A stretch of DNA of 64,000 nt from Geosiphon pyriformis uo1 (taxonomy: Eukaryota; Fungi; Glomeromycota). Below, in pieces: positions 16,701-55,875 of the stretch. The stretch covers positions 574,787 to 638,786 of the forward strand of contig JAAOMT010000183.1 in NCBI GenBank assembly GCA_016748015.1, in the 5' to 3' direction. The notes under the pieces were generated by a model. That model did not search any database, was not told the DNA's origin, and saw only the letters and a program-made list of their open reading frames with translations. Numbering within the stretch: the stretch's first letter is position 1; each line of letters opens with the position of its first letter. Position numbers and translations under genes: made by a program.

Positions 16701-18410
16701 TTATAAGGTTTAGAGATTATTGACACCTACACTCTCTTTTAAGAAGTCAAAACTGCACTCAATGCCAAACAAGTATTTAGCAGCTTCAAAAGACAAGCCA
16801 ATACTTTCCTATCACAATGCTTTCAAAGTTCCAGACAAATCAGCAGCTTTATTATTAGGCAAATCACTAATAGTTAAAAACAATTTCTCTATGTTAATCT
16901 CTTTTATCACATTAAAAAAGACATTATTATTTACATAATCCAGAAGCATATATTGATAAGACCACAGATCAGGCATCTTTGGGAGCACCAACTGCTTTCT
17001 TGTCTATCCTTTCATAATCTCATCAATCTTAAGCTTTATTTCCTTAGGCTCTATCACCATCTCATTGTTTACTACCAGGTAATCCAAAACAATCTTGCAA
17101 AATGGACATTCCAAAATGCTCTTTATCATCTATCTCTTGTCAAAACAGAAATTTTTTATATGTTAGTTAATAGTCTTCCTAATATTAGCATTTTTAGCCA
17201 ATTTTGATTCATAATACTTAAACTTCTAATATTTTTTTCTTACTACTGACAAATGTCTAACCAAATCTTTTGAACCAACACTATCTGAAACCATGTTAAT
17301 AATCTTAGATACCTCAACACTATCTATAAATATCCAAGCCTTAACAATGCAGTCAAAATTCAGAAGATCTCCAGAATTTCAGTATCTTACAACCTTAGCA
17401 ATAAGCAGCTCCAACTTATAAAATTTTAATGATTGTTTGTTTTTTGAACAATCATATTTACTATACCAGTTCTTAAAAAACACTTTAATAGTAGTTTGTA
17501 TTATGGCTTTTTCTAACAAATTTTACATTATATCTAAGTTACTATTGTTTTTTGCAACTTTAAACATGTTTAATCTGGCTAATAACACAGCAGAAAAACA
17601 CTTCCTGAAATGCAATCACTAAATCTCATCAGCATTTTCCAATTTGAACTTCCACCAGTCTTAATTGGCCTGCTTATGAGCACTAATAAGACAAGCATCC
17701 AGAAGTCCACCCAAACCAATTAAAACTAAAACTAATTTATGCTCTGTATTAAAAAACCTAGACACATTATTGATTCTATGCAATACAACTGCAAATGCTA
17801 GGTTCTTACTCACAAAGATGAAATCTATAACCCTTTTGACATCTCTAGAATTGTTCCAAGTAGAAGCTTTGGCTAACACATGTTTATTAAAAGTATTGAC
17901 CAGATTCAAATCTAAGCAGAACTTGAAACTAGCACTCTTTTTGGACCCATTTTTATTAAAATCACTACCTAAGACCACAAAAGAGCTAGAATTAACCACC
18001 TTAGATATCATAAAGTTGATATCAACAGCTTAGCCAAAACAAGTACCAATGGATACACCAGCATAAAAACCCAAAACTGAAACCAAAAGCTTATTCTTAA
18101 ACAGAAGACATACAAAGATCAACCAACCAGAAACCTCTTCTACTGTAGACACATAATGAGCCAAAAAATTGTTCATAATTATAGCAACCCTAGTGTCAAG
18201 AAAACTTGCATCCAAACCAGTAGTGAAAACCTGAACATCATCAAATTTATTCTTAATCTATAGTCTAATGTTAGATCTCAATTTTATTTCTGTAATAATC
18301 AAAACCATGTTTTCTAATTCCATATGCCAATGAACAATGTTATTCTGCTTGGCAGGGACATTAATACTCTGAATATTGCACATAGCAAATTTCCAAACCA
18401 GATCACTCAT
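13742..18410 (-). pseudogene. L2 ORF2: APE endonuclease, RT, RNase H, C-terminal Cys/His finger
   Basis: MSDLVWKFAMCN, VLGSDFN and IDFIFVS (APE); NTRPIALI (RT); IYTNGSL, TKLQTVALALEC, LYSDS and WVKVKSHS (RNase H). Confidence 0.88.
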
Positions 18411-23800: not shown

Positions 23801-25525
23801 TTTCCATTTGTATGATTTAGGGATCATTAAGACCCAAGCCTCTTTCCAAAAACTGGGTACTGATTTACTGATCAAACAAGTATTTAAAAACTCCAAAAGC
23901 ATACCCAGAAAAGATTTGTCACAGTGTTTCCAAAGTTTGTTGGGAATACTGAAAAGACCAGCAGCTTTGCCATCAGGCAGATCAGAAACCATACCAAACA
24001 ACTTATCAAAATCAATTGGTTGCATCACATCTGAGAATGCACCATTAAAGACATGCTCTAGAGGCTGGTATTGACAAGACCATTTACTAAAGATATCAGA
24101 AACCACCTTGCATTTTCTAGTCCACCCTTCCATAATCACATCCACTTTAACTTTGACTAACTCAAGCTCCAGAATTAATTTATTACCAACAACCAGATGG
24201 TCCAATTTTACTTTATAGAAAGGACGTTTCAAAACACTCCTAATAGTGTGACTTTTATCAAAAGCAAAGCTCTCCATATGCCTATCAATGGTAGACCTAA
24301 TATTAGACTTTTGGGCCCTCAAAGATTCAGCAAGTTTGAAAGCACAATAAGACTTTTGTATGCCAAAAAGAGCAGATTTAACACAATTATAATTCACACC
24401 AGAGTCCAAAAAAACCTGTACCACCAAGGCTTTGTTAGAATCCAAAGAAGCCCAATGGCTCATCAAAAATGTGAATCTTAGAGAGTCTTGTCTATGGGAT
24501 GCTTTAACAATTCTTGAAACCAAAATTTCCAATTTGTAAAACTTAGAAGAGCCTTTGGTGAAGATGCTATCAAAGCCTTTGAACTATTTCTTCTTAAACA
24601 ATTTATTAGCCGAAAAAACCATTACTTTATAAACAATTTCTCACATAGAATTCAGATCAGAGGACACCACAGAAGAAATAAACTTATTAGAAAACATAAT
24701 GGCATTTGCTGCTATCAATACTTTGAACTCACACCACTTAACCTTGTCAGCACTTTTGATATCATACTTCCAATAATCCATATTTACTTTTTTGCAGAAA
24801 AAATTCAACTGTGTATTTAATAATCTACCCAAACTTACAGATACAGAAACAGCCTAATAGTCAGTGTCAAAATGTTCACCAACCTCCAAAACACCATGAT
24901 GTATTAATGCACCAACCAAATTTGCAGAAACAAGCACATAATCAATTACTTTTGTAACTTTGTAAGAATTTGACCAAGTAGGTGCCCACACTGCCAAACT
25001 CCTAACCAAAAAATTGATTAACTCCAGATTAAGACATTTTTTAAAGCTGGCATATTTACGAGAACCATCCTTGTTGAAATTACTACCAAGAATGACAAAA
25101 GAAGATTTATTTACAGTTCTAGTCATGAGTGAATTAATTTCATCAGCCTAAGAAAGACAAATCATAAGAGACACTCCAGCATAAAGCCCCAGAATCAAGA
25201 TGGAAAGTTTATTTTTAAAAAGCAACTTGATAGATAAAAGCCAACCAGGCACCTCAGAAATCTTATACACATGCCTTGTCAAAGAATCATTCATGACCAC
25301 AGCAATACCTGACCCCAAGTAACCAGAGTCCAACCCAGAAATAAACACACAAATACCCTCAGATTTTTTAACAATTCATGAACACATTTTCTCTTTTAGC
25401 TTAGTTTCCATAAAAATTGAAATTAAATTGTTCATGTCCTTATGCCAATGTACAATATTATTTTGCTTTGCAAGATTGTTCATGTCTTTAACATTGCATG
25501 TAGCAATTTTCCAGATTAGATCCAT
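20842..25525 (-). pseudogene. L3 ORF2: APE, RT, RNase H, Zn finger
   Basis: MDLIWKIATCNV, METKLK, ILGSNFN, IDYVLV, FDTDY; MQKTYDSVGWEHL; SVYTDGFL, LAELQAIALALEC, HSDNQ, GNNCADAFA; CLFYNDVKVSNHVFSC. Confidence 0.9.
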
Positions 25526-34545: not shown

Positions 34546-35917
34546 AAAAAAAATCAAAAAATAATAATAATTAGCAATAATTCATTGCTAAAAAAGAAGA
34601 AACAAAAGTGGTGACAAAAACTCCTAACTTTACTGTTGTTAAATTCTGCCATGTCTTTTATTTATAACATCAAAGTGATTTTGGATTACCAGAAGAGTGT
34701 TGTCCAGCTGAAAATGTTCTCACCTATTAAATTAACACCAGAATAAATTATTACATAGAAAGGGAAGAAGAACCAAATGATACAAAACATCAATTATATA
34801 GGAAATTATCTCAATTTACTACAAAAAAAACAACAGTATTAGCTGTGACTATTGTTCAAATTCATTGTAAAATTGAGCAATATGCCAACAAAAATTACCT
34901 AATATCTACAAGAAACACCAGAGAACACGTTCACAATCCAGAAATTAATTATGAAAAAAATCAGCAAAAATTAAGAACACCTGTCTAAACACCCAAGAAA
35001 AATGTCATGCAATCAGTAAAAAAACAACGTCTTCATTCACCAAAAGAAAGATCTTACCATTTTTCTTCAGATAATAAAATCCAACTCCCTTTAGGAGCTG
35101 CATTATCATCTACATCAACTCCACAAATGCCAAAAACTTTTAATTACACTGAAAAGCTCAAACAACACAATTAAGAAAATATATCAATTACAGAAAGATA
35201 TTCATTGCTATTCCAAAAACCCCTTTTTCAACCAAAATTTAGAGCAGGGTTTGAAAACCATAAAGAGGAGTCTGAATTAGAATCCAAAGAAACCAGTGAA
35301 AAAACAAGCATAAGACCAATCACTAAAACAAGCAGCCAGTTTAGAAACCAAAAAACTCATGATCAAGAAGAAGAACCAGATATAAAAAAAGCCACCTTTA
35401 GGAACGCTCAAAGAAATATCATCCCATCTCCTCTTAAACCAATAAATTCACTAGCAGGAAACAACAACAAAATAGTCACACTATACATCACACAATTAAC
35501 GGATTTCTCAGGAGAAGAAGAAGAAATAGATGTGCACACATGGCTCAAAGAAGCACAAAAAGCCATCTAGGCAAATAACTGGAATAATCAAAGAGCAATC
35601 AAAACATTATCTTTCTTTTTGAAAGACACTGTCAACTCATAATATCAAAGCTTGGAAACAAAACCCACAAGCTTTGCTGAATTCAAAGATGCACTCTTGG
35701 AGTATTTTAGTGACTCAAACACCATAATCCAACTGCAGAACAAATTCCATACTATCAAGCAAGGTACAGATGAAACTGTTACCCAATACCTTGCTTAATT
35801 TAATCGAATTTGCCATCAGATTGAAGTGATTGAGCAAAGATACTATACTGATCCTCAAGTTTTAAATCAATTTATTAGAAGATTAAAAAGCAGCATTTTA
35901 GAAAGAGTATGCTCTGC

Positions 35918-36807
35918 TGTTACAAATAATTATTTGGGGTCTCAAGTCAAATAACAAATTTGTAACTTGGTGCTTAATTGGTCTTATGGGTTTGATATTT
36001 GAAGGTTTTGTAGTGGAGTTCTTTGTATAATAAACAGAGATTTAATGACAATATAGTTGGTTGGTAAGTTGTTTTCCCAATTTCTGTCTTTAGTGTAGTG
36101 ATCAGTTTATTCTGACAGTTGTGCCCTTCTAGTAAGCTATCTGTTAATATATATATGATTCTACTCTTATTTCTGAGTCTTTTACCAGGCTATCTATGAT
36201 GTTAATAACTCAGTACTTTAATCCCTAATCAATTAGTATACAACAATAAAATCAAAGAAAAGAAAATAAAAGAAATAAAAAAATGAGTCAAGGCAATATA
36301 CAAGTTAGTATTCCATCAATAGCCATGATCAAGAGCTATTGTTCCAGTATAATTAAGTGTTAATGACTATCAATATAAAGTGTTGATAGTGAAAAGTAAA
36401 TATTAGGATATTGAATAATTATTTTATTAATATTTTCAATGTGGAAGGTGGCTTAGATTAAATCTAAACTCAGAGGTCTCTAACTAAAGGATTCTGCCTT
36501 TTCTATTTCTAATGTTACTGCTATATATACATAATTGATGTTCTATGAGATCACTTATATTCCCAAGTGATGTGCTATGATTTCTTGAGCAATGCTCACA
36601 TTGCTGAGCAATGTGCTCTAATTTTCTAATATCACTCCACATTGCTGAGCAATGTGTCATGTTTTCTGATATTGCTCTATATTGCAGAGCAATGTGCTGT
36701 AATTTCTGTTATTGCTCTACATTTCTGAGCAATGTACTCATGTACTAAATACTATTCACTTATTGGTTTACTATTTTCCCTATATCTGTTTCTTTTTATA
36801 AGTAATA
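35918..36807 (-). repeat. 3' LTR of C (890 bp)
   Basis: Direct repeat of 45223-46112; preceded by PPT AAAAAAGAGAAGATAA (36808-36823). Confidence 0.93.
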
Positions 36808-36821
36808 TTATCTTCTCTTTT

Positions 36822-37457
36822 TTAATATTGAGCTCCATCAAAATCTTCATTCTAAATTAGCTTTAATACTTCTTTTTCTAGTATTGTTTGTTCGACTTTA
36901 TTTTTTACATCTTTTATTTGTACATTGTTCATTTGTTCCCATTGGTTAATGGTTATGGTTTCCATGTTCAAGTATAACAGTATTTTTGGATAGTTCCGAA
37001 ATATGTTATGTAATCAGTACATTGTCTTAACATGTAGTGTTGAATTCATTTTCTTTCCAATAAATTTTTCAATTTGTTGGATTATGTCTTGGTTGAATAT
37101 TCTCTTGGATTTGTCAATATACAACTCTTGAATATTCAACTTTTGACCTAACTGATAGTAGCAATATGATATTAGAAGTCGTTTTGTCTATTGCTTCCAA
37201 TTTTTTTTTATAAGCTCTTTTGTTGGTACCATAATAGGTATTTTTCCAAAAGTGTTCTTTACTTTTTTTATTAAGTTATCTGTTCAGTTTTTATCATTCT
37301 TTGGTAGTTACTAATATAATGTATTCTTTGTCTTTCTTTGGGTGTTTTGATAACAAATTATTTGGTTGTTAATAATAATTTTCATGTCTAACTGTTGTTG
37401 ACTTAAGGCCTGGAACAATTGTTGAGCTATAGTGTGAATATAATCTGGTATTTCCAT
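36822..37457 (-). pseudogene. C ORF3 (212 codons, in-frame stops; not in ORF track)
   Basis: Manual translation: MEIPDYIHTIAQQLFQAL...SYCYYQLGQKL...KFIGKKMNSTLHVKTMY*LHNIFRNYPKIL; homologous to ORF3 of A and H. Confidence 0.8.
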
Positions 37458-37511
37458 CTTTCTTGGTTGCTTTTGTCACATGTACTATGTCTTTATATAC
37501 TTTTTGGTTGT

Positions 37512-38894
37512 TTAATTTGACGTGTTTGGTTCAATAACTATGATTGGTTCTAGATCTTGTAGAATTTTATCTGGTTGAACTAGTATTCTTTGTACTTCCA
37601 GTTGTGGAATATTATTGGTGGATGATGATGCTACCTAATAATATGGTTTCAGTCAGTCACCATGTGTTGCTTTGGCTAAGATTTTGTTGTCCCATCTTAA
37701 TTTATAAGCTCCATTTCCTAGAATTTCTTCTATGTAAAATGGTCCATCCTATTTAGGGTCAAATTTTCCATTCCATTGTTTTTCTACTTTGGTACAATGT
37801 AATAGTACTTTGTCTCCAATTTTGAATTCAACTGGTTTATCCAGTAGTTGGTTATCATGTCATTTTTTTTGCTTTTCTTGTGACTTCTAAATGTTATTAG
37901 CTGCTTTTCATTATCTGTTTTCTAGTGTTTCTATTAGATTATATGTTCTTTTTAACAATGTTTTTTGGAAATTATCTTCTGTTATTGGTTCAGTTGGATA
38001 TGTATTGACCTCTATTTCAACTGGTAATGTTGCTATTCTACCATATACCAATTCAAATGGTATTGCTTGTGTGGTATTTTGTTTTATTGTTTGATAAGCA
38101 AATAATACTGATGGTATAAACAAATCCCATTCATCTTGGTTTTCTTGGCTAATTTTGGCTATTGTTTCACACAGTGTTTTGTTGAACTTTTTAACTAATC
38201 CATTTGTTTGTGGATGGTATAGTGATGATAATGGTTTTTTTATTCCAAATCTTTGGCTTAATTCTGCTAATGTTTTATTTACAAAGTGAGTTCTTTGATC
38301 TGATAATAATTCTTTTGGACATCTGTGTTGACAAATCAGATCTTGATGAATGAATTTGGCAACAGATTCTGCATCTGCTCTTTGAATGGCTTTTGCTTCT
38401 GGCCATTTTGTGAGATAGTCTATAACTACTGCAATATATCTGTTGCCTCTACTGGTAATTGTTAATGGTTTGATTAAGTCAATTCCAATGCAATTAAATG
38501 ATTGTCTTACTTTAATTGGTTTTAATGGTTCACTGGGTTTTGTTCTATCTTTTCTCTGACAAGCATCACAATTTTGAACATATTGGATGATGTCTGGATA
38601 CATTGATGGCCAATAATATCTTTTTCTAGTTCTTTCCATGGTTGCTTCTTTGTGAAAGTATTCTGCTGTTGGATCTGAGTGCATGTTGAATAATATTGTT
38701 TCTTTCTCTGGTTTTGTGATTACTCTGGTTGGTTGATCTGAATTTTTTCTGTTCTTTCAGTAAAGTTTATTTTAATGGTTGATAAAATATTTTGATTGTT
38801 GTTTTATGTTTCTTTGTTCTTTTTGAGATAATTTCTCCTTGAACAATTGGGTATTTATATAATGTTGAAGTTGTTGGTATTTTTGTATATTCAT
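37512..38894 (-). pseudogene. C integrase with its own ATG
   Basis: MNIQKYQQLQHYINT...MHSDPTA...CDACQ...IGIDLI...LLSDQ...HPQTNGLV...DGPFYIEE...LEPIIVIEPNTSN*. Confidence 0.9.
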
Positions 38895-38924
38895 CTTTTG
38901 TTATATTTTTGAGTTGAAATGTTT

Positions 38925-41900
38925 TTAGATTTGTCTTATTCATGATAATCTGTTGGTATTTCCATTGTCTTTTCCCTTTTTGTAATGTACTGTATAGTTA
39001 AATAGTGAAAGTTCTATTTTTCATCTGGCATGGCGATTGTTTGCAAATTTCTGTTTCTGAATTGAAGTCAATCCTTTATGATCTGTCTACACATCAAACT
39101 TTTGACTCAAGTATTTTTTCTATTTCATGACTGCCCAATAGATTGCTAAATGTTCTAGTGCTGGAATTCCATAGTTCTTTTCAGCTAGATTTAAGCTTCT
39201 ACTGGCATAAGCTACTGGATGCTTTCTTCCATTGGGTCTTTTCTAAGATAATACTGCTCCTAATGCTTGACCAAATGTATTAGTTGTAATTATAAATGGC
39301 TTGTTATAATCCGAATAGATCAGTATTGGGGCTTAAATAAGTTTTCTTCTCAATGTATCAAAAGCTTTTTGTTGCGTTTCATTCCATTCATATTTGGTGT
39401 TCTTTGTTTGAAGTTGGTGTAGTGGTTGAGCTATTTTAGAAAAGTCTTTAATAAAGCAGCAGTAGTATCTAGCAAATCCCAAAAATGCTCTCAATTCTGT
39501 GAGATTATTTGGTACTGGAAAGTTCTTGACAATCTCAATTTTGTTTAGATCCATTTTAATTCCATTTTTGCTTATCACATGTCCCAAAAATTTGAGTTCA
39601 GTTTTCTTAAAGAAATACTTGTTTGCATTCAGCTTCAATTCTGCTCTTCTTAATCTTTCAAATACTTGTTGAAGATGATGTAAATAGTCATCAAATGTCT
39701 TGAAAAACACATTTGTGTCATCTAAGTATATGACAACTGATTCCATAGTAGCCCAGTATATACAATTTCTATGAGCTGTTGGAATGTTGCTAGTACATTC
39801 ATCAAGCCAAATGGCATTACTTCAAACTCAAAATTTCCCTTTCTTGTAGTAAATGCTGTTTTCTCTTTGTTAGCTGGGTTCATGACTACTTGCTAGTAAC
39901 TGCTATTTAAATCCAATATTGAGAACCATTTCTTTTTTCTAAAAGCATCAAACAGCTCTTGAATCTTTGGAGTTAGGTAGCTGTCTCCTTTTGTTACTCC
40001 ATTCAGTTTCCAGTAGTCTATACAAAAACGGATTTTCCCATTTTTCTTATAGACTAGTACCATTGGTAATAACCATGGGCTCATTGATGATTGAACTAGT
40101 CCATTGTCTAATATTTGATTGATTTCTTGATAAATGATCTTATGGCTGGCTGGTAATACTCTGTATGCTCTTTGTTTAATTGGCATTGTATCTCCAGTCT
40201 TAATTTGATGCTGAATTATGTTGGTTCTGCCAAATTCATTTTTACTGGCAAAAATGTCATTGAATTTGTTAAGTAACATTTTGAGTTGCATTTGTTAGAG
40301 TGGGTCTAGATTCCCTATGTTTATCTGTTCCAATTGTTCCAGTTGGAGCAGATAACATTTGCTTTGTCCATAAATGATTTGTGATGTGATGTCCATATAT
40401 TCACAAAGTTGTGGAAAATCTGGAATGTAGTTTGGTAATTGATCTTCAACTTCAGTGGTTAAATATCCAATGATGATTCCCTTTGATATTTTGATGACTT
40501 TTTCAGTTGTGTTGTAGATGAGAATTTTGATGTTTTTGAGACTGTTGACTGATATGTAAAGATTAGTGAGTCCAATCTCTCCTGATTCATAAATAGTGGC
40601 TTCTGCTTCAAACAATTAAGCTTGATCATTCACTTCCCTTTTTATGGCTAACATATACTGGTCATATAGTGAAATAGAAATCAGTTGACAGGTTGAGATA
40701 ATTTCTTCTTTGTCAACAATTTTTTTCTCTGCCATATTAACTAATATGTCTATTCTACCTGTTGATCCAAATCCTTGTATTCCTCTTGCTGTTATACCTA
40801 GTTCTTCCCTCTTTCTCACTGAAACTAACTGAGCTATTTTTACCAGAAGTAAGAATATTGCCTGTGCTATCTTTTCATTTGGCTCTATAATATAGGTCTT
40901 TTTTGAGTCATTTTGTAGCATGACAATGATATTCTCTATGTATTCCACATTAATTATTCCTCTTCTAATATTGATTCCTTTTTTCGCTAAACTACTTCTA
41001 AATGCTAATTGAACTATGGTTGTTGCTAGAATTTCCAGAGCTATTTTGAAATCAACACATGTGCACGAATTTGGTTCCAATTGGATGGCTTCTTTCTCCA
41101 GATATCTCAGATTAAACCCTGTATTGTTATTATGTGCATGTTCTGGCATGATACCTTTATTATTGTCACTATACCATTTGAGTTCCTGTTCTTTAGAGAA
41201 ATCAGAAAGTACAATGTATATTTCTGGGTTTGAATCGGAGTTTGAATCATTGATATTTTTGTTGTCATATTAAGCAGAGCTAGAACCAGTGTTTTTATTG
41301 TTATCATTGTTGAAGTTTGAATTGGGATTGAAAACTGATTCTAATTTTGATGCACAGCTGTTGATTGGTTTCTCTTCTTCTGGGATTGTGTAGATTATAC
41401 AGATTGGTAGATTGTAAATAAGGTTACACTCATTACAATATTGAAAGTTACAGAGAATTAAGCAATGTTAATATAATTAAGTATTCAACTGCTCTAGACA
41501 CTGTTTTTGTTCTTCTCTGATGGGTGCTAATCACTGGTAATGTTTGTGGAATTCTTTTGGATTGTTCTCAATGTTGCCAAAGACATTGAAAGTTTGGATG
41601 TATTTGGGTTCAGAAAGAAACAGAGGGTTGTTTTTGATTTCTAATAGTTTACTGGTTGTCACATCTTCTGTTTTTGCATATGCCATTCTTCAGAGTTTAT
41701 GTTTGTTGTGGGAATATCTTTTCAATCATTGCAATGCTTTTTTCCAGGCGTCATTAATTGGTGTTCCTTTGTGTACCCAGTTGTTTATCAGGATGATATA
41801 CTGGTATGTTTTGTTGCACATTCCTCTGTGCCCAAAAATGTCATTCCATATTCCTTCATCAGGTAAGATAGTTCTACATGCAAAACAGAGTTGGTTATCC

Positions 41901-44900
41901 CATTTTCCTTGTTGTTTTGGTCATCCAAAGCACTTTATGATGCATAGATGGCAGTAGAATCTTGTGGCTGTGGAGTATTCTTTGTCATCGTCACAGCATA
42001 CATCTATTAATGACAATTTCTTGTCACAATTGATGCATACCAATTTTGGTCGGCAATAGCCAGATGGCTGTAGTAAAGTGTAAGCATATGGACTATAAGT
42101 GTTGTTGGTGGGTGTTGTTTCCTTTTCTTTTTCTTTTTCCTTTCCTTTATTATTATCTTCTTTCCATTCCCAAGTTAGTTTGTTTTAATCATTGTCAATT
42201 TTCCAGGCTTGATCAGTATTCCAAGTAAGTTCAGTCTTCTTCTGTTTTTCTTTGCTGTTGTCATTTCAAGAAAAGATAGGCAGTAGTTTGTTGTCTTCAT
42301 TGGCCCAGGACACTTGATAAGCTTCCAAGGTAGGTTTCTCTTTCTCTTCTTTCTCGAACTCAATAAGTGGTACTGGCATATTGGTCAGTTTGAAGTGATC
42401 ACATGTGGCTGGTACATGTGTGTGTCAACTGTTCTGGCTAATTTAAAGCTCTTGTATATTCCAATCAAGCAATGCATTGGTTTTAAATAGCCAATCATTA
42501 CCAACAAATACTTGGTACTGAGTTGCTTCTATTACAAGAACTTTGATGGATATGATAATGCTGTTGATTTCAATAGGTAAGTCATTTATTTCGCTGATCA
42601 GAGTCTTTGTTACTCTATTAGCTGTTATGATTTTGGCACCAGCAGTTTGATCAACTCGGTGACCTAATTGGTCTATGAGTTGTTTTGTAATGATACTGCC
42701 AGCTGATCTGCTGTCTAGAATTATTTTGATGGGGTGGCCATTGACTTTGGCATCAGTGTACATGGCAGTAATGGGTTTTTCCTTAAGAGCAGTTCCACTA
42801 AACAGCAGTGTGGTTGACAGTTTCTCGAGTTCAAATGAGAAGATAGTGTCCAGTGATTTGTTCTCAGTAATGGTAGCTAGGGGAATATTGCTGGTAAGTG
42901 TTAATTGTTGGTTGGTTTCTAGATTATTGGGTTGGATGTCATCTGGGGTAATCAGAAGACTTAAATAGTTCTGAGAATTTGGGTTTTGGGTGTACTCAGT
43001 GCCCAAATTCTGTTGTCGAGATTCTGCTGGTAATGTGGAAGAACTGGAGATTGGTTAATAGACTACCATTGACAATCTTCAGCTTTGTTGGGTTAATCTT
43101 GGTCTTTGGGTTCCGTTTTAAGGTAAGTTCTGTGGCAGTGCTTGAATTTGTTGGGGCTGATAGATTACCAAAGGCTGTGACTAATAAATAAATTGTGACT
43201 GTGGCTAATAAATTACTGGTATTGTTGGTTGATAAATTGGTGCTTGATATACTGGTAGTTGATAAAGTGGCAGCTGCATTATAGGTAAGTAATTCTGATA
43301 ATATGGCTCTGAGTTTGGTGGGTTATTTGGAATTTAGAACTGGTGATCAGAGTTTCAATATTGATTTCCCGATTATTGGTTATTTAAGCAACAGTAGCAG
43401 TCAATTTGTAGATGTTCTTGTTTATCACAATAGTAACAAACATGCATCTCCTGTTGCCACTGTTGATTGGTCAACAATGATGGACACAATTGATTTTGGA
43501 AACAATTTGCATTTTCTTGATTATTGCATCATTGTGGAGGTTGATAGATTACATGATTGTCAGCTAAGTATCCCACTAATTTCTGATTTATTAATATGCT
43601 GAATTGCTTCAATTTGGAATCCAAGTCAGATGATCCATTCATTACTAGATTTACTGCTTGGGTGTGGTTGGCTTCTAATTCAGTAGCTTCAAAATCTCTG
43701 GCATTTGTAATGGCTGCTTGTAGATTAATGGGATGTCTTGGATGTACATGTTGCAGGATACTACTGCATAATCCATGAATAAACTGATTCAGGATTTGGG
43801 CCACTGTCAAATAATTGGCGTTGATGGCTTGGATTTGGTGTAGATTCCTGTGGAAGCGTCCTAAGTAAGTAGTGACTGCTTCAGTTTCTCCTTGCTTGAT
43901 GGTGGTAAAAATGTTTGCCAATCAGTTAATGCTATTATTATTACTAAAATATTGTAGGAATGCAAGCTTGAATGCATTGAAATTTTGGAGTTTGTTGGCT
44001 AGGCTTTGATACCATGAGTTGGTGGTATTTTGGAGAAAGTAAGAGATGGCTTGGAGGGCTTTTGTGTTATTCTATCTATTTGCTGTGATGGTCTTTTCAA
44101 TGTCATTGAGCCATATTTGGGTGTTGTCTTCTTTGCCAGTGAACTTTTCTAGTTTTGCTATTGGGGCATAGGCCATTGGATCTAAGTTTAGTTGTTGTTG
44201 TTGTGATGGTTGTAGTTATTGTTGTGGCTGTTGAAACGGCTGTTGAAGTGGCTGTTGGAGTTGTTAAAGTGGTGATTAAATAGGTTGCTGAAAGAGTGGC
44301 TGTGAGATTGGTTCAAGTATAGATTCAATTGGTGGCTGGTCGATGATGATTACTAAAGGTGAGTTTCCCTAATTAATTAATTCGGAGTTTAAATTATTTG
44401 GAGTTTGCTGGATTTGAATGTTTGGGGTTTCAATTTCTAAATTCTCTGTAATCGGATTCTGGTAAGTAAATTTCTGATCTTCAGCTTCTTTTTCTTCCTC
44501 CTCTTCTGATTCTGTTATTTTCCAGGGACTTGCGTTTTCAAAATCTGGTTAAGGTAGCAGTGATTGGAAACCTAATGGCACTGGCAATCATGATTTAAAT
44601 TCTTCAAAATATTTGCCATATGGTCCTAGTAACTCTGCTCTTCTTTGTTTACTTTGGAATGGGAATTGTCCAAAGGTTGATGTCATGTTTGATGTGGATG
44701 TGTCTGTTAATGATATATTGATGACACTTCCAGGCATATAATAATATGATGGATTGATGAGTGATTCAACTCAGGTTTTTTTCCAATTGGGTGGTTGTAT
44801 TTGTTTTAGTGTTACTGCTGAGATTTGCAATCTTCCTTTGCCTTTGTCTGCATAGATGATGGGGAATTGTTGTTGTGTATATTTTTTAATGGTTTGATTG

Positions 44901-45160
44901 ATTTCCCTAATAATTGATGCAAAACTGTAGTTTCTTGGTAAGCTGGTATGTTGAAATAATTCTGTATAGAAGTTTTCCCTTGCTGATTTAATATTAACTG
45001 TTCCTCCTAAGCAATCTGTGATTTTATCATTGACATAGAAGTTAAAGGCTGATTCTGCTGGGAAATAATTATTGTTCAATCTTAATTGTTGACTGTACTG
45101 TTGAAACAAGAATTTGGCAAATTCTAAATGGTTTGTCCCTATGATTTCTGATTCTGTCAC
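38925..45160 (-). pseudogene. pol: C gag-PR-Cys-dUTPase-RT-RNase H polyprotein
   Basis: Gag capsid and CCHC; PR IILDSRSAGSII; dUTPase TGFNLRY, RSSLAKKG, KIAQAIF, ARGIQGFGSTG (~40755-41150); RT YLDD; RNase H ending IRQI-TAA. Confidence 0.93.
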
Positions 45161-45204
45161 TTTTGGATGATTGTTGATGGTGCTGGTTCTCTGTAAGATT
45201 ATAT

Positions 45205-45220
45205 CTCACAGAAAGCACCA
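45205..45220 (-). promoter_or_regulatory. Primer-binding site of C
   Basis: TGGTGCTTTCTGTGAG, 2 nt after the 5' LTR. Confidence 0.85.
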
Positions 45221-45222
45221 AA

Positions 45223-46112
45223 TGTTATAGATGATTATTTGGGGTCTCAAGTCAAATAACAAATCTGTAACTTGGTACTTGGTTGGTCTTATGGGTTTGA
45301 TATCTAAAGGTTTTGTAGTGGAATTTTTTGTATAATGGACAGAAATTTAATAACAATGTAGTTGGTTGGTAAGTTGTTTTCTCAATTTTTGTTTTCAGCA
45401 TGGTGGCTGGTTTATTTTGGCAGTTGTGTCCTTCTGGTAAGCTATTCATTAATATATATATGATTCTACTTTTATTTCTGGGTCTTTTATCAAGCTATCC
45501 ATGACATTAATAACTTAGTGCTTTAATTCCTAATCAATTAGTATACAACAATAAAATCAAAGAAAAGAAAATAAAAGAAATAAAAAAATGAGCCAAGGCA
45601 ATGCACAAGTTAGTATTCCGTCAATAGCCATGATCAAGAGCTATTGTTCTAGTATGGTTAAGTGTCAATAACTATTAACATGAAGTGTTGATGGTAAAAA
45701 GTGAATATTGGGATATTGAATAATTATTTTATTAATATTTTCAATGTGGAAGGTGGCTTAGATTAAATCTAAACTTAGAGGTCTCTAACTAAAAAATTCT
45801 GTCTTTTCTACTTTTAATGTTACTGCTATATATACATAATTGATGTTCTATGAGATTGTTCATATTCTCAAGTAATGTGCTATGATTTTTTGAACAATGC
45901 TCACATTGCTGAGCAATGTGCCTTAATTTTCTAACATTATTTCACATTGCTGAGCAATGTGTCATGTTTTCTGATATTGCTTTATATTGCAAAGCAATGT
46001 GTTGTGATTTTTGTCATTGCTCTACATTTCTGAGCAATGTCCTCACATGCTAAATACTATTCACTTATTGGTCTACTATTTTCACTATATCTGTTTCTTT
46101 TTATGAATAATA
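45223..46112 (-). repeat. 5' LTR of C (890 bp)
   Basis: Direct repeat of 35918-36807. Confidence 0.93.
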
Positions 46113-48864
46113 CTGCCCACTCTAATTCCTTACCAGAAGCTGTTATGCTTGTCAGAGCTCTTGAATCGGCTGAAAAAGAAGCTAACCATAGTCAAATAGT
46201 TAACATGATAATAGAAAAAAACAAGACAGAAATGTTAGAAAAGAGAGTAATACAATTAGGGGAGAAACTCTCTAAGAAAATAAAAAGTTACCTTATTTTG
46301 GACCCAAGAAAAAATAACACATACCAAACACCACAAAGATGCAACTAGGAATTCAGTAATAGCCAAAATAATCACTTGTCATGCCAGGACTTTAGAACAG
46401 AAACATGCACCTGCCATTTTTGCAAATGTATAGGACATTTGATTAGTTAATTTCAAATGTGAATGATGTATGAGACATGCGAGAATAATTATTATGCGCC
46501 ACTTCAAATGCCCAGAAATCAATACATGCTAATATCACATCAATACCCTATCACATACCAAAATCAAGAAACTTACTAGCAACAGCTCATAATAGCCAAC
46601 TAAAATTGGCATCTCGAGCCCCAAAATCAGCCTATGTGGAATCAAAATGCGTTGGTTTAGAGAAACCCAAACTGCACTGAACCTAATCAGTAAACAAACA
46701 CAAACTATCCAAACTATCCAAATTTCCAGCCAACTTACCTTAATATATCGGAAAACTTAAATCTTGAAAATATTAATGGTAATGTACCTAAAACCAAAAA
46801 TATCACCAATAACCAGAACTTGATCCAAACAATACCACCAGCCATTGTTATGAAAGATAGCAGCCTTGCAGCTATTTTTTCTTTTGAATTAAAAGAAAAA
46901 GAGACTATGTTTAATGGAGCAGCATTGAATGAAGAACACCCAATCACTGCTATGTACACAGAAGCAAAAGTAAATAACATGTCAATTAAATTCATCTTAG
47001 ACAGTAGATCTACTAGAAGCATTGTGACATTTCAACTAGTAAACCAACTGGGTTTCAAAGTTGATTGCACCACGATATCCCAAATTATAATAGCCAATGG
47101 AAGTACCAAGCTGTCTCATGGTGAAATCGACTCATTTCTTTTTAAAATTAATGGCATAATAATATCTACAAAAGTATTAGTAATAGATGCTACACAATAT
47201 TAAGCATTAGTAGGGAATGACTGGCTAACAAAAGCCAATGCCATATTAAACTGAACCACCTAAGAGCTTCTTATCAACTATAATGGCCACCATGCCAAAA
47301 TTCCAGCTATATGTGGTCACTTCCAAAAACCCAGCACCAACCAAAGACCCATCTTCGAATTTGAAAAAAATCCAGTTTTACCAGCCATCAAAACTTATCA
47401 GCTCTCATGAGTTAATGACCAAAGAACAGGACTACTGGCCATACTAACTTGAAGGAGTAAAGAAAAATCCAAATGGAACCAAGCAAGTTCATGAAAAAAC
47501 TGCCAGCAATGCAGACCAAAACTAAAATGTTTGGTTTGCAATAAGAAACTCTTATTCATAACTGCATGCAGTGCATCAGATGAAGACCCAAGAAACTCCA
47601 CCCACTATTATTGTAACTATTGTAACAAAGAAAAATATGGTTACCCAGAAAAACACAGAAAATGGGATAAAGAACCATGTCTTGCTTGTAGAAAACCATT
47701 ACCAAAAGGATGCAATTGAATTAACATGCCAGGCAAAGGAGAAATGTGTGATGCAACTTGCCAATATATAATCCTTATCTGTAACTGAGTAAGAGAAAGA
47801 ACACCATTTGAAGCAGTATTCAACAGAGCATTAAGAAGACTGCAACACTACTCACATGACAAAAATGAGTTATATAACACCACACAAGCCAAAGTAAGAG
47901 GAGGAACTGCTGAAGAAATACGACATTAGAAAATGTCAGCCAAAATAGCCAACAAAGTCACCAACTACAACATGTTTGACCCAGTGGACAAATTTCAGGA
48001 AAACTACCAATAGCTATGCCCCACTCACCAAGAGCAAGAACAGTATTTTGTCCAGATCAACACTTACTTTTGTGAAGACTGTCTTATCCCATGCCAAAGT
48101 CAATGCTGTAAAAAGTATCAATACAAAAGAGACTTGGCAAGAAAAATGGAAAATAAGAATCAGCAATACCAAAATCAATCAATAAATCAACAAGACTTAC
48201 CTGACAGTTCTGAGTCAGAAAAATTTGTAGCCTATACTAATCTAGAACAAGAGATCAACATCCAATACTTTGACAATGGGCACTTAAAGATAATACCCAA
48301 AAGAGCCTATCTAACCAATGCTGGATTCAATCTATGTTATTCAGAAAACCAATTCACAACATTACCACCTAGGAGCATTACCAAAATTGATTTGAAAATA
48401 GTGATTGAAATTCCACCAGAAATAATGGTTTAAATAGTGTCACAATTAAGCCTAGCGAAAAAAGAAATAGGCATTCAAGAAGAAGTAATTAACTCCAGCT
48501 ACACTGGAATTTTGATGGTTTTACTACAGAACAATTCAGAAAAACTTTATACCATTGAATCTAAGGAGAAAATTGCACAAGCAATTTTCCTACCATTAGT
48601 AAAAATTGGAAAATTTGTACTAGTAGAAAATCAAGAGAAATTAACACAAATAATGAGAAAAATTTATGGTTTTGTATCAACAGGAAAAAGAATTAAAGCA
48701 AATTTTATTGAAACACCAGAGAAAAAAAATGAATTAATCAGAAATAAGCAGTCAATCATGCTTATGCTATTATGGGTAAACTTGGTGGGTATGGAAAATG
48801 GTAATGTTTGGTGCTCTCAATTATTGATGATGCATCTTCTGCGTAATTTTGTTGGCTTAGTCTT

Positions 48865-49782: not shown

Positions 49783-50304
49783 TTAGAATTGAGCTCTTGT
49801 GAAATTGTATGTATTTGTTCCTATGTCTTTATTCATGTAATGTTTGATGATTGTATTGAGTACTGTTTTTTGTAGGTTTTCGAACTGTCAATTGGTAATT
49901 TGTCCTATGTTGTTAACTGTTATCGTCTTTATTGATCTATACACCAGTATATTTGGACAATGTTGGAAAGCAGCGTATAGTCAGTATGCTGCTTTATAAT
50001 GTAGAGTCAGTTTGTTTTTTCCTATGAACTTTTTTACTTGTTGTATTGCTTCTTTGTTGAATGTTTTCTGGCTGAAGTCTTTATATGGTGTTTTCAAGTC
50101 AAGCTGTTTTCCAATTTTGTAGAACCAATATGCTGGAGGAAGTTTTTTTTTCCATTTCTGGACATTATTAGGTGCCCACTCCCCTGTTTTGGGGAGTTTG
50201 GTTTCATGAGCTAAAGCTTTTTTTATTTCTTCAAGCTTGGTGACCAAGTATCTTCTTTTATAACCTTTTTCTTATTCTTTGCCTCTTTTTTTTCCACCTT
50301 CCAC
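49783..50304 (-). pseudogene. H ORF3, C-terminal part
   Basis: AYWFYKIGKQL...KKFIGKNKLTLHYKAAY*LYAAFQHCPNIL...IGQIT. Confidence 0.75.
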
Positions 50305-51263
50305 TGTTATCAGACGAAATTAGAGATATTGCTTAGCATGAAATTACCCTTATAATTCTTATCATTTCAAATTATTACTTATTACATTAGCAAAATATCC
50401 GAAATTATCATTTAATTAATAATCCAATTTGTACATAACACAAATGTAACCTAATTGCGATGATTAATCATGCAATACCCCGAACTATGTAATATTCAAA
50501 AAGTTTGTAGAAATTTGTAGAAATTTGTCAAAATAATTGATAGTTCACCAAAATATCTAATGGTTCGCAGAAATAACTTGTAGTTCACCAAGATGTATCT
50601 TTAGTTCAGCAAAATTGTAAAAAAGAGCAAGTTCAAGTTCATAGAATAGTGTTATAACAAGTTGTATAAAAGAAGAGCTTCTTTCTTCGAAAAAATGTAT
50701 CTTACTTTAGATTTATTACTTAGAACCATTCCTACACACACAAAAAAAAATAAATATCAAATAATTCAAAAAACCAAATTCTTTAATTATTGCACTTGGA
50801 AAATCCCCAAAACCCAACTAACATTTTGAAATTGATTAGCTACCAATTTCAGTAAACTGTTAGTGACTCCAGGCCTGGATAGAAAACGTTTCCCTTAATA
50901 AAATCCTATTTCTTTTACATTTCTTTTATTTTTCTTTTCTTTTCTTATTATAATCATTAGAGTAGCCTACAGATGAGATTCCTGTAGAAGAGTTGACTTT
51001 CACAGCAAAGTAACTACACATTTTTAGTAAGCTTCTAGATGAGCAATTTCTGGGAAAGAGTTGATATTTACTACAATGTAACTACATAAAGTAACTGGCA
51101 AGGAATTGGCCATTCTACTTATAAGCCCAGCAGTTCAAATTATAGGAGATAATTTGAAGATAAATTCAGTTATTAGAGGTTCAACCACATTCAGAAAATG
51201 TGAATTCACAACAAACAGGCATCAACAACATTTAAAAAAAGAGACCAAAAACCTCTGGTAACA
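50305..51263 (+). repeat. 5' LTR of E (959 bp)
   Basis: TGTTAT...TGGTAACA termini; repeated from 55450. Confidence 0.92.
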
Positions 51264-51309
51264 TTTGATGCTTTCTCACAAAAATAACACAGTGACAACA
51301 ACTTCAAAA

Positions 51310-54300
51310 ATGGTAACTCAAACAGATTCAAGAACTCTAGAGTATTATCAGTCAATTTACACCCACTGCAAGCAGAGATTTAACATCCTAGACGGAATTG
51401 AAACATTCAAGAAAACACTTTACCAGTATATTGAAAATTGCATCAACAATTATTTTTTTGGAGACTACAACATTTCAGAAGTTAGACACAACTTATATGA
51501 AAGCTTAGTACATCACTCTCGTCTAAACACTCAGGATTTTAACAGTCAAACACTTGAAACATACTTCCAAGAACTCAACTTCAATATCATTCAGTATTGT
51601 GAAGAGAATTACTCAGTAGAACAGAAATTTTCTCTTAGTTTTGAATCGGAAACAGAAGAAGGAAAAGAAAAAAGGAAACAAAAACTCAGAACTACTCCCA
51701 ATACACCTAAAACCACTGCCAAACATTTACAAACTTCAGAACAAGAAACCAGCTTTAAATTACCATTCTCAATCACACCATTTCCAGCTTCACTTGCTCA
51801 ACCACAAACACCAAGCTCACCACTTATTTGGTTTTCAAATATAGAAGATTTTCAGTCACTCAAAAGCCCTATTCAACAACAGAAACCAATATTAACCAGC
51901 ACAAACCTTATTGACTACTTAGCAGAAAATCAAAGTAAAGAGACTGAATCAGAACAAAAAACAGAAGACTCAGAAAACGAAGAAGAAATGGCCTCCACAT
52001 ATATCGCAAAAATCCCTGAGTTCACAGGAGAAGACAGCAAAACCAGTCCTCAAAAATGGCTTGACAAAGTTTCAAAAGCAGAAGATACAAATGGTTGGAA
52101 TGCTGCCAGAATGTTAAAAACAATTCCATACTTCTTACAAGGAATGGCTGGTAAATGGTTTGAAAGCTTGGAAGCCCCACCAGAACACTGAGAAGCATTC
52201 AAAACTGCTTTTCTAGAACAGTTTACTGACAATAACACTTCTATTACCCTTCGAAATTGGTTCCAAAATATCAAGCAAAAACCAAGTAAATCAGTTATGA
52301 CCTATCTTGGGAAATTCAACAAACTGTTTAGAAGGATTTGCCAATTGGAAACAAATGAATATTACTCCAATGCACAAATCTTGGATCAATTTATTGCTGG
52401 ACTAAAAGACAAACTTATCAAGAAAGTTTGTCCACATGCACCAGAAGATTTAGCCACTGCTATTCAGCAGACAAAAAACTATGAAATAGCCATAGAAGAA
52501 GCCAATCATACCAAACTTGTTAACCTGGCTATTGGAGAAACCAGCTCAGCAGCTGAAGAAAAGATTGACCAATTAACGAAAAAAGTTGAGAACTACTTCA
52601 CCAACCAACAGCAACAACAACAGCCACAGTAATCACAACAACCACAAAGATACCAATCTCCACAAAGACAAAATCAAAATAACTTTGCACTACTTTCTAA
52701 TAACCAGCCTCAGAATTGCCATTACTGTGAAATCCCTGGCCACTGGAAAAGAGATTGCAGAAAGCTATAACAAGACTAACAAAATAGGAGTAACCAACAT
52801 TATCCTCCACCACAGCAATCTTATTATCAACCACCACCACCAGCTTACTATCCACCAAGACCCCAATATCAAAATAACTATTATCAGCCCACCCCACAGC
52901 CAATCCAATAGGAATACCAACAACCATCCACACAACATTATAAAGTACCTGCTCGATGATTAGTTTAACAAAACCAATTTGCATCACCAAATTGATTCAC
53001 AACAAACAACAACAGAGTCAACCCAAATAACCAATTGGTTCCCCAAAATTCAACTCAACCAAGACCCAACCACTATTATACTTAACTTAATTATCTTACA
53101 ATGCCAGAAGAACAGAATTTTTGCCATACTGCACTCTCAGAAAGTAGAGCTGCAGCACAACAACAAAACTCTTTCCATACTCCTACCACAATCCCACCAG
53201 CCAGAATTGCTGAAAATGCCAATCTTTCAGATATATTCTCTTTTGAATTTGAAGCAAATGAATCACCATTCTTGCTTAGCAATACAGTGGCTAATGAGCA
53301 AAAAGCCATCACTACAATGTACACAGAAGCTAAAGTAGAAGGAAAGCCAATTCATTTGATCCTAGACAGTAAATCCGCTAGAAGCATTATCACATATCAA
53401 TTGATGCAACAGCTAAAAAAAAATGTTGACCGACCAGTTCAGACAATCATTGTCACTGCCGATGGCATAAAAAAGACTCCAGTAGGAGAAATTGACAACT
53501 TCCCATTCACAATTAACAGAATCACTATTCCAGTCAAAGTTCTGGTCATGGATGCTCCCCAATACCAAGCTCTTGTCAGAAACAATTGGCTCCAAAAAGC
53601 CAATGCTAATCTGAATTGGGAGACACAAGAGTTAACAATCTCCTACCAAGGACAACACATCTGAGTACCTGCCACTTATAGTATATTCAACAAATGCTCT
53701 GAAAAAGCCCCGGCTTTTGAATTTGAGCCAGAAAAAGAAAAACCAATAATTGAAACATTCATGGCTCTTAGATTAACATCTAATTGGGCCGATAAAACTG
53801 AACAAAAACATTTCACTTCAAACTTCAAACCCAAAACTCCTGGATAGAATATCCCCTACTTAAAGCCTGAACCAAGGAAATGACGCCCCTACATTCCTCT
53901 TAAATGCAAAGACTGCAACAAAAAGCTTTTGTCAATGAGAGCTTGTATTTCACCTGAGAAAAAATATGAAAATCACACCTGCTATTATTGTAATGTCTGC
54001 TATTAAGAACAATAGAGCCACTTGATCAAAAGAAGTGGAAAATGGAATGAAACACCCTGTCTTACTTGTGGAAAACAGCTTCCTGACGAATGTGACTGGA
54101 TTGACATTGCATTTAGAGGAGGAGTCTGTGATCAAACTTGTTAATATGCTCTTTTTATTGTAAAAAAAGTAAAATGTGGAACACCTTTTAATGCTGTATA
54201 TAACAGCGCCCTCAACAAACTCTATCACTACCCTCATGATGCCGAAATGATCTATGAACTTGCCATAATCTTAATTAATAGAGGAACAAAAGAAGATGTC

Positions 54301-55304
54301 CTCCAAATGAAAGAAGCTGAATATATCGAATATACCTTAGAATTAGCTGAATTCAATTATGAAAATGAAGTAGAAGTATACTATTAAATCACAAGTTATA
54401 TCTATCCGACCAAAAAAGCTCAAGCTTAACGGCTAGAGCAAATAAACATTAAATTATATAAGGAATGCATAATGCCTTGTGATGAACAATGGTGTTCTGA
54501 ATGCTATGCCCTTAACATTTCATTACCAAGTGAAAGTAACAAATATAAAATCGAATTTGGTGAACTTAAAGCAACAGAAAAAATTGAAATAACACCTGTC
54601 TATCTTATAGAAAGTCAATCTGCTTTACAGCTTAAATACTTCAACAACAATGGACAAAGAATAAAGCCTGAAAAAGCACATGAAATTGATGCTGGATATG
54701 ATCTACGATATCCAGGAAAAGATACTTTGGTTCTTCAACCAAATTTTCTTACCAAGATCAACCTCAAAATTGCCCTCGAAATCCCACCAGGAGCAATGGT
54801 TCAAATCGCTTCATGATCATCATTGGCAAGCAAAGGAATCAATATTAGAGGAAAAATCATAGATGCTGGATATACAGAAGACATTACAATCATGTTACAA
54901 AATGAAACCAATAAACTTTTTCAGATTGAACATACTGAAAAAATTGCTCAAGCTATTTATTTACTTTTAATTAATATTTCAGGTTTATAATTAATCAGTC
55001 AAAGAGAACAATTGAGAAAAAGTGAAAGAGGAACCAAAGATTTTGGTTCAACTGGATAATTTACAGTTCCAGTAAACATAGCTCTTAACAAACAAAATGA
55101 ATCTTACCAGATTCTACGACTTCTACAACCAATTATTATTTCACCTTTTGGAGAACATCCAGAAATCTACATCTGTCCAAAGCCAATAACCACACAACAA
55201 ATTTTTGAGTCCAACGAACAAATTTGCTTGGAACATAATATCTCGATTCTAAATATTTACATTCTAGAAGGAACAAAAAAAGTTCGAGTTACTTTTTACA
55301 ACCC
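51310..55304 (+). pseudogene. gag: E gag-PR-Cys-dUTPase, single reading frame with stops
   Basis: ORF pieces at 51265, 52297, 53101 and 54472 share one frame; YIAKIPEFTGE, CHYCEIPGHWKRDC (52717-52758), LILDSKSARSII, DAGYDLRY. Confidence 0.9.
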
Positions 55305-55449
55305 TTGAAAATTTAATACATTGGAAAGTTCACAGAACTGGAATTTCAAAAATTTTCAGACCAAATTTCTTCAATAATCTTGAATTACTATCTGGAAATT
55401 ACAGACAGTACTTGGACTTCGACGGAGCTCAGTCTTGAGGAGGAGGTTA

Positions 55450-55875
55450 TGTTACCAGACAAAATTAGAGATATTGCTTAGCATGAAATTACCCTTATAA
55501 TTCTTATCATTTCAAATTATTACTTATTACATTAGCAAAATATCCGAAATTATCATTTAATTAATAATCCAATTTGTACATAACACAAATGTAACCTAAT
55601 TGCGATGATTAATCATGCAATACCCCGAACTATGTAATATTCAAAAAGTTTGTAGAAATTTGTAGAAATTTGTCAAAATAATTGATAGTTCACCAAAATA
55701 TCTAATGGTTCGCAGAAATAACTTGTAGTTCACCAAGATGTATCTTTAGTTCAGCAAAATTGTAAAAAAGAGCAAGTTCAAGTTCATAGAATAGTGTTAT
55801 AACAAGTTGTATAAAAGAAGAGCTTCTTTCTTCGAAAAAATGTATCTTACTTTAGATTTATTACTTAGAACCATT
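55450..55875 (+). repeat. 3' LTR of E (partial)
   Basis: Matches 50305-50730. Confidence 0.9.

Follow-up and report, generated by a model that had tools for sequence, protein, structure and literature searches.

The question raised by this locus is how an LTR (long terminal repeat) retrotransposon can supply its integrase when the enzyme lies outside the polyprotein. The DNA analyzed is a 64-kb stretch of the Geosiphon pyriformis genome (hereafter the window), and the element of interest, element C, occupies positions 35918-46112 on its minus strand. A TAA stop closes the unit coding for Gag, protease (PR), reverse transcriptase (RT) and RNase H (RH), the integrase (IN) begins at its own ATG, and a third open reading frame (ORF3) lies further downstream. 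Element C is crowded with decay stops, and therefore the stop was examined in other copies and in relatives. It proves to be a trait of the lineage and not a product of decay. We observe three ORFs, conservation of both the stop and the ATG, a wide spread, and purifying selection on ORF3. We consider it somewhat better than an even bet that element C represents a Ty3/Gypsy lineage, likely of Glomeromycotina, whose polyprotein would end after RH, whose separate, ATG-started integrase would be made by reinitiation, and whose ORF3 would come from an internal TATA promoter.

Evidence for the conserved stop comes from several datasets. When 1535 contigs from one public DNA run were aligned on the element C junction, a procedure biased toward similar copies, no variant of at least 8% was seen at the TAA or the ATG, and five nearby positions vary. 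Elements A and H of the window also carry the end composed of RH, stop, IN and ORF3, and they are 40-55% identical to element C in RT, RH and IN. In element A, the RH stop is at 3842-3844 and the integrase start position lies 67 nt downstream in a different frame. A DNA scan for integrase relatives, made with no length filter, yielded 80 soil-metagenome loci. The RH end and IN are both present in 54 of these and occupy separate ORFs in all 54, so that the canonical layout with integrase inside pol is not found there; the other 26 carry IN only. All eight loci that are intact but more distant (L081 and L116-L122) have RH and IN fused. The split count excludes L123-L126 and L136-L154, which are decayed and in which 'split' means multiple stops. 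Relatives' polyproteins stop a few codons past the same ..LSR motif, and in intact relatives, whose ORFs reach 1600 codons, termination is at the same place as in element C.

The integrase start is equally constant. All 68 loci that were scored have ATG at position 1; the scoring omitted 15 of the 80 metagenome loci, those whose IN profile match starts after position 3. The start context has A at -3 in 46 of 65 loci and G at +4 in 56 of 65, compared with 99 of 363 (27%) and 105 of 363 (29%) at internal Met codons. A protein search with the element C integrase, which admits proteins of 230-734 residues and is blind to fused forms, gave 579 matches at E ≤1e-30. The best 120 of these 579, which are the matches listed, span 359-453 residues and include proteins of Rhizophagus irregularis and R. 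clarus; 99 of the 120 start at the position aligned to the Met of element C. Integrase clusters include two from R. irregularis (42 and 35 members) and a third with Entrophospora proteins. A scan of viral contigs with the element C integrase alone gave no match.

Junction geometry could be measured at 47 loci; the other 33 of the 80 offer no usable junction because RH is missing upstream, the motif was not found or, in L052, the 827-nt gap is broken. The spacing between RH and IN is at most 2 nt (including overlap) in 8 of the 47, 19-100 nt in 28 and more than 100 nt in 11. It is highly improbable that the RH stop is decay, or a recoding site at which frameshifting or readthrough still yields an RT-RH-IN fusion. 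The many decay stops of element C, where IN is in frame with RH, would suit such an explanation, and one frameshift or one readthrough event would suffice at 13 of the 47 junctions. However, the other 34 exclude a single frameshift or readthrough, because the IN frame is closed after the RH stop in 25 and several in-frame stops intervene in 9. Spacer length varies between -20 and +506 nt, with all three frames represented, and the invariant TAA and ATG, the 54 split metagenome junctions and the shared stop of intact relatives likewise argue against decay or recoding.

The third coding unit recurs together with the split. Room for ORF3 exists in 47 loci, and in 30 of them an ATG-started ORF of 119-230 codons follows IN. 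By BLASTP, 25 of these 30 downstream ORFs cluster with the ORF3s of elements A and C, three more align, and two (in L023 and L033) differ. A BLASTP chain through P0150 and P0149 connects the ORF3 of element C to that of element A, and an ORF3 profile finds further copies that overlap the end of IN. The open ORF3 of element A has 200 protein matches, and the 120 listed comprise 119 from G. pyriformis and the window's own; named members of the family also occur in Diversispora epigaea. The ratio of nonsynonymous to synonymous substitution (dN/dS) is approximately 0.14-0.3 in the four pairs for which it is computable, and silent sites are saturated in four other pairs. The recurrence of split and ORF3 across relatives agrees with the first-pass annotation, made from the sequence alone, which had proposed that an old, diversified lineage is characterized by its three coding units and that these do not reflect a chance capture. 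Great age belongs to the lineage and need not apply to copy C.

The protein encoded by ORF3 is conserved, soluble and all-alpha, and neither a family nor a fold match was found for it. The helical architecture is that of a predicted structure with a mean pLDDT of 93.6. Sequence searches of Pfam, PHROGs and PDB gave no noteworthy match, and Foldseek gave none at E ≤0.001 in PDB and viral libraries. The best VIA Z of the model (5.0) falls on generic helical repeats, fold leads to a closterovirus coat protein and RegA have Atlas feature scores of 0.92-0.94 with fewer than 170 shared features, and DUF1016_N is matched by one of 35 sequences at E 0.037. These blank searches do not prove a new fold. 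The highest 19-residue hydropathy mean is at most 1.29 in all 37 sequences, and no env family match was found for ORF3. Because it has no hydrophobic or transmembrane segment, ORF3 is not an Env, and the description of the element as 'retrovirus-like' therefore fails in the envelope sense. More tentatively, ORF3 might act as a soluble, nucleic-acid-binding regulator.

A predicted promoter of its own is the likely source of ORF3 transcripts. Of 29 loci, 22 have the pattern TATAWAWR 21-150 nt upstream of ORF3, in most cases between -35 and -68, compared with a mean of 2.3 and a maximum of 6 after shuffling and with 35 of 440 coding windows; near-duplicates L019, L052 and L068 were left out of the count. 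Where ORF3 abuts IN, the box falls within the coding end of IN. We read this excess as an internal promoter, like the one mapped for Tor env (PMC4402516, in part; here and below, 'in part' marks sources of which a portion was available). The TATA excess argues against translation of ORF3 by stop-start coupling. In L023 (6546-6941) and L033 (1524-1886) a small helix-turn-helix protein takes the place of ORF3, also behind a TATA box.

Element C displays the hallmarks of Metaviridae, including two direct LTRs, a primer-binding site (PBS) after the 5' LTR, a polypurine tract (PPT) before the 3' LTR, Gag with capsid and nucleocapsid, and the order PR-RT-RH-IN. The zinc knuckle is decayed in element C and clear in relatives. 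The closest solved structure to the RT-RH profile is Ty3 RT (E 3e-140, 471 bits versus 330 for the next family), and in trees RT-RH groups with fused Gypsy-type loci, apart from an outgroup lacking IN. Three RT-RH trees, composed of loci and outgroups without clade names and of no named reference clades, place the split elements, with A and C, on one side of a branch (the third tree is without C). Pfam detects no chromodomain in C or A, and none occurs among the 120 listed relatives, in 117 of which the stretch past the GPY/F motif is 8-74 residues long (median 45). Named hosts fall in four orders: Geosiphon, Rhizophagus, Entrophospora and Diversispora. Elements of the lineage also sit inside records titled as bacterial genomes, including that of a Gigaspora endosymbiont (L113, L114, L115 and L123; P0242 and P0410), which likely reflects fungal contamination of those assemblies.

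How might the integrase then be made? Genomic RNA would yield the Gag-PR-RT-RH polyprotein, and after its stop some ribosomes might bridge an overlap or a spacer that lacks AUG and start again at the integrase AUG. Such reinitiation would decouple integrase dose from Gag, and the enzyme would reach the particle or the cDNA without a Gag tether, probably via RNA binding. We give this route roughly even chances. The overlaps and the ATG-poor short spacers favor it: the 28 spacers of up to 100 nt hold 2 ATG where 19-28 are expected, and near-absence is the expectation if ribosomes scan them. Several observations weigh against the overall proposal. The spacers are short of GTA and TAG as well, and thus the ATG deficit is not specific. 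The 11 spacers longer than 100 nt, with up to 10 ATG, would block scanning from the RH stop. Without helper elements, ribosomes seldom reinitiate once they have translated a long ORF. Because the loci are related, shuffle statistics make significance look greater than it is. Support for a single clade is moderate (95 in a quick tree, 75/70, and 72/94 in a tree that omitted L081, six near-duplicates, element C and three outgroup rows), and most intact relatives have no assigned host. The ORF3 profile misses the decayed ORF3 of element C itself, and in one subclade it finds no member of the family. The TATA pattern is also present on the reverse strand in 12 of the 29 loci, and element A has none.

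The same three ORFs could instead be served by a subgenomic RNA for IN, produced from an internal promoter or by splicing from the 5' leader, which we regard as unlikely. The 11 long spacers are ATG-poor only in their last 75 nt (2 seen, 8-14 expected), which fits a short 5' leader or a separate 5' end, and in the long-spacer subclade a TATTTAAA-like word can be recognized by eye. Precedents are foamy virus Pol, made from spliced RNA (PMC7828637, in part), and Tor env, made from an internal promoter (PMC4402516, in part). A TATA box precedes IN in 8 of 55 loci, but this is no overall excess (shuffle mean 3.4, maximum 8). A splice acceptor abutting the integrase AUG was considered and rejected, since G occupies position -1 in 5 of 65 loci and no AG is conserved; several spacers are entirely AG-free. 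The start/stop overlaps at 8 of the 47 junctions are a better fit to coupled translation. We judge it quite improbable that an RNA element in the spacer guides the start of IN, whether by internal, cap-independent entry or from a 5' end made by processing. An argument for it is a covarying 40-nt stem-loop that one subclade carries shortly upstream of the integrase AUG (L014:5744-5788 and 22 other loci, one copy each); 96.5% of cells are paired and 8 of 10 pairs show double changes, values scored on the very sequences from which the structure was derived. The stem-loop has no Rfam match in the 14 loci searched, is absent from the window and from other subclades, and could equally be a helper of reinitiation or a packaging signal. 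Subclades may use different routes to integrase.

In one subclade, all eight loci carry an in-frame TGA followed by CTA between gag-PR and RT-RH. UGA-CUA is a known readthrough context, and this subclade may combine readthrough with a separate integrase.

In its most ambitious form, to which we assign slightly less than even probability, the proposal is that this is an undescribed, Glomeromycotina-wide, genus-level branch of Metaviridae. The protease site between RH and IN would have become a cistron boundary. IN would be translated from a polycistronic RNA, starting at an AUG of its own, and would be packaged with no tether to Gag. An accessory protein of new fold, expressed from an internal promoter, would regulate the element, as in complex retroviruses.

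Partial parallels exist among other elements and viruses. DIRS-type retrotransposons carry their integration enzyme in its own ORF, but it is a tyrosine recombinase, and they are without this plan of LTR, PBS and PPT. Caliciviruses, influenza B and fungal victoriviruses translate a downstream ORF by termination-reinitiation after a long ORF, for which tight stop-start overlaps are needed; in the lineage described here, a tight overlap is seen at only 8 of the 47 junctions.

The Metaviridae profile issued by ICTV, the international body for virus taxonomy, describes one, two or three genes (gag-pol; gag, pol; gag, pol, env) with integrase inside pol (PMC7879559). The lineage shares with that family its LTRs, 18-nt PBS, PPT, capsid and nucleocapsid, and domain order, whereas its integrase is an ORF of its own and its third gene is not env. 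PosPlaTy3-5, the Phanerochaete elements and Tmt1 (PMC2864245, in part) have a dUTPase between PR and RT, some with an extra ORF, and the bdelloid elements Juno, Vesta and TelKA (PMC5408684, in part) have both features; a separate integrase ORF is not mentioned in the available portions of either report. Rotifer ORF3s are of env, GDSL, DEDDy, coiled-coil or transmembrane types, and none of those described in the same portion matches the ORF3 of this lineage. The Oikopleura elements Tor3b and Tor4b likewise express a third ORF from an internal promoter instead of through splicing (PMC4402516, in part), but that ORF3 is a membrane Env with a promoter mapped by rapid amplification of cDNA ends, whereas the promoter here is only predicted. 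Foamy viruses also make enzymes apart from Gag, package them through RNA and use an internal promoter (PMC7828637, in part); there, the whole of Pol is separate and comes from spliced RNA, whereas in this lineage only IN is separate and PR-RT-RH stays with Gag.

A Gypsy lineage with a separate integrase ORF is unmentioned in the available portions of PMC3248453, PMC12440569, PMC5911963, PMC10508981, PMC11952901, 10.1101/2021.03.30.436303 and 10.64898/2026.05.21.726589. The first-pass annotation did not recognize the combination from a described clade, and in keeping with this no paper describing the lineage was found in the literature searched, with Repbase, GyDB, subscription journals and supplements (the family table of PMC2864245 and the transposable element library for arbuscular mycorrhizal fungi of PMC11952901) outside that search. 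A prior description is possible, if somewhat unlikely.

Ty3/Gypsy elements and retroviruses bring integrase into the particle within a polyprotein, and a separate enzyme needs another route for both translation and packaging. The intact, multi-copy families of the model fungus R. irregularis make this question testable. The lineage would also explain hundreds of stand-alone gene calls annotated as 'integrase' or 'hypothetical' in mycorrhizal fungi and soil metagenomes, some of them filed under bacterial genomes. In ORF3, it supplies a conserved protein family without a known fold.

The window is AT-rich, with a CpG observed/expected ratio of 0.14 and nested LTR elements throughout; LTR sequence makes up 41% of the G. 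pyriformis genome (PMC11952901, in part). Element C, a complete yet decayed Ty3/Gypsy element, is inserted in the gag of a plus-strand element. Its order is LTR-PBS-[gag-PR-Cys-rich-dUTPase-linker-RT-RH]stop-[IN]-[ORF3]-PPT-LTR (see table). This layout of three coding units with accessory modules, as first annotated, is confirmed by the LTR pair, a 4-bp target duplication, the PBS, the PPT and Pfam matches to capsid, protease, dUTPase, RT, RNase H and integrase in Gypsy order. A single frame runs from the PBS through capsid, protease, Cys-rich module and dUTPase to the start of RT, which is interrupted by a frameshift. The frames contain many decay stops: ORF1 has 32 before the frameshift, RT-RH 6, the IN region 9 and ORF3 6. 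An Arg codon probably decayed to give the TGA at 38940-38942. The integrase may truly end some codons past 37635. The motif GGAGCTCA ahead of the PPT is also present in some relatives, with the strict pattern in 9 of 36.

The two LTRs of element C are 89.4% identical to each other. Strong C-to-T decay inflates age estimates that are based on their divergence. Transitions account for 92 of their differences and transversions for 2, and few of these changes lie in an intact CpG context; the decay is therefore probably mostly deamination, and the copy may be younger than its 11% divergence implies.

Features of element C (window coordinates) and the TGA-CTA sites of one subclade (locus coordinates)
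Feature	Position	Strand	Remarks
5' LTR	45223..46112	-	890 bp; target duplication CTGC at 46113-46116
Primer-binding site	45203..45220	-	18 nt, TGG-initiated; similar site in elements B and E
Gag capsid domain	43685..44167	-	PF03732 E 9e-9, PF19259 E 2e-6; frame runs from PBS
Decayed CCHC zinc knuckle	43394..43444	-	CxxC..H..C pattern in translation; clear knuckle in element F and relatives
Aspartic protease	42437..42772	-	PF13975, PF08284, others
Cys-rich module	41405..42052	-	Common to A, B, C, D, E, F, H; no Pfam match
Trimeric-type dUTPase	40757..41155	-	PF00692 E 2.5e-15; motifs visible in alignment
Linker domain between PR and RT; may be a degenerate dUTPase fold (weak)	40370..40732	-	HHalign
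Reverse transcriptase	39387..40336	-	PF00078 in two frames; frameshift near 39830
RNase H	38928..39386	-	PF17917, PF17919
TAA stop closing the gag-PR-RT-RH unit	38925..38927	-	Invariant among copies; relatives stop alike
RH-IN spacer	38895..38924	-	30 nt, A/C-rich, ATG-free; length variants of -24 to +9 nt in other copies
Integrase, own ORF	37635..38894	-	ATG at 38892-38894; PF17921, PF00665; HHCC, core, GPF, SH3-like end, no chromodomain
TATA box, predicted internal promoter	37491..37499	-	42 nt upstream of ORF3 ATG
ORF3, decayed	36830..37457	-	~209 codons; BLASTP link to the all-alpha ORF3 family of the lineage
Polypurine tract	36808..36823	-	GGAGCTCA motif just before
3' LTR	35918..36807	-	890 bp; target duplication CTGC at 35914-35917
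TGA-CTA at PR-RT junction	L015:2745-2750, L016:2498-2503; also L017, L019, L021, L029, L042, L077		

The Cys-rich module and the dUTPase recur together in elements A, C, D, F and H, and the Cys-rich module also in B and E. The Cys-rich copies of A and C are approximately 31% identical, and a predicted model of the Cys-rich/dUTPase region is of low confidence (pLDDT 33). PF00692 scores above cut-off in C and A, and the copy in H matches solved dUTPases. Trimeric dUTPases have five conserved motifs, the third of which holds the catalytic Asp; at that position elements A, H and F have Asp, and C and D have Asn. The second, dUTPase-like domain of the first-pass annotation is at best faintly suggested. 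Its HHalign probability is 12% (E 0.0024) against the linker found in fused Gypsy elements, and one of those elements matches dUTPase faintly; against the dUTPase of its own element the probability is 0.4% (E 0.15).

None of 22 ORFs from 20 relatives contains a dUTPase, and no ORF of the 96 loci retrieved, about 20 of which span the PR-RT linker, gave a match to the dUTPase or to the Cys-rich module. Since both were found only in Geosiphon window elements, these modules do not define the lineage. The expectation that relatives would share the same architecture thus holds for the RH/IN split and ORF3, which soil-metagenome loci carry, and not for the dUTPase and Cys-rich module, and the view of the whole module set as lineage-defining is abandoned. 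What defines the lineage is its stand-alone integrase together with the conserved ORF3; the dUTPase is not part of that definition. Both modules are probably add-ons of this genome's branch, where the dUTPase would serve to keep cDNA free of uracil. Nor is the dUTPase the novelty it was taken for on the ground that Gypsy elements normally lack one. A dUTPase between PR and RT has been described in basidiomycete and Tuber elements (PMC2864245 and PMC6431247, both in part) and in rotifer Gypsy elements (PMC5408684, in part), and this already known feature of fungal elements adds little that is new.

Other elements of the window include element F (51262-55875), whose LTR parts (50305-50730 and 55450-55875) are 99.5% identical. 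Its linker domain is joined straight to the ORF3 end, and RT, RH and IN are lacking; it is likely a young, internally deleted, non-autonomous copy. A second ORF3 fragment lies at 49843-50187. Another repeat of 1.5 kb is present in three copies (11419-12922, 15708-17164 and 22784-24291) that are 64-68% identical.

Relatives carry further accessory modules. An RNase H tail rich in Cys and His, 220-320 residues long and of no Pfam family, occurs in L014, L031, L035, L045, L054, L059, L071, L074 and L113, and a different Cys/His-rich module, also of no Pfam family, lies in the PR-RT linker of L009, L010, L020, L023, L068 and L078. A conserved His-His-Cys-Cys segment opens gag ahead of the capsid in L016, L026, L044, L045 and L073; the gag start of element C differs from that of these relatives and has no Pfam match. 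L073 (887-3013) has a thymidylate-kinase-like P-loop domain (PF02223, E 0.0017) joined to its RNase H, a second add-on for nucleotide metabolism in the lineage.

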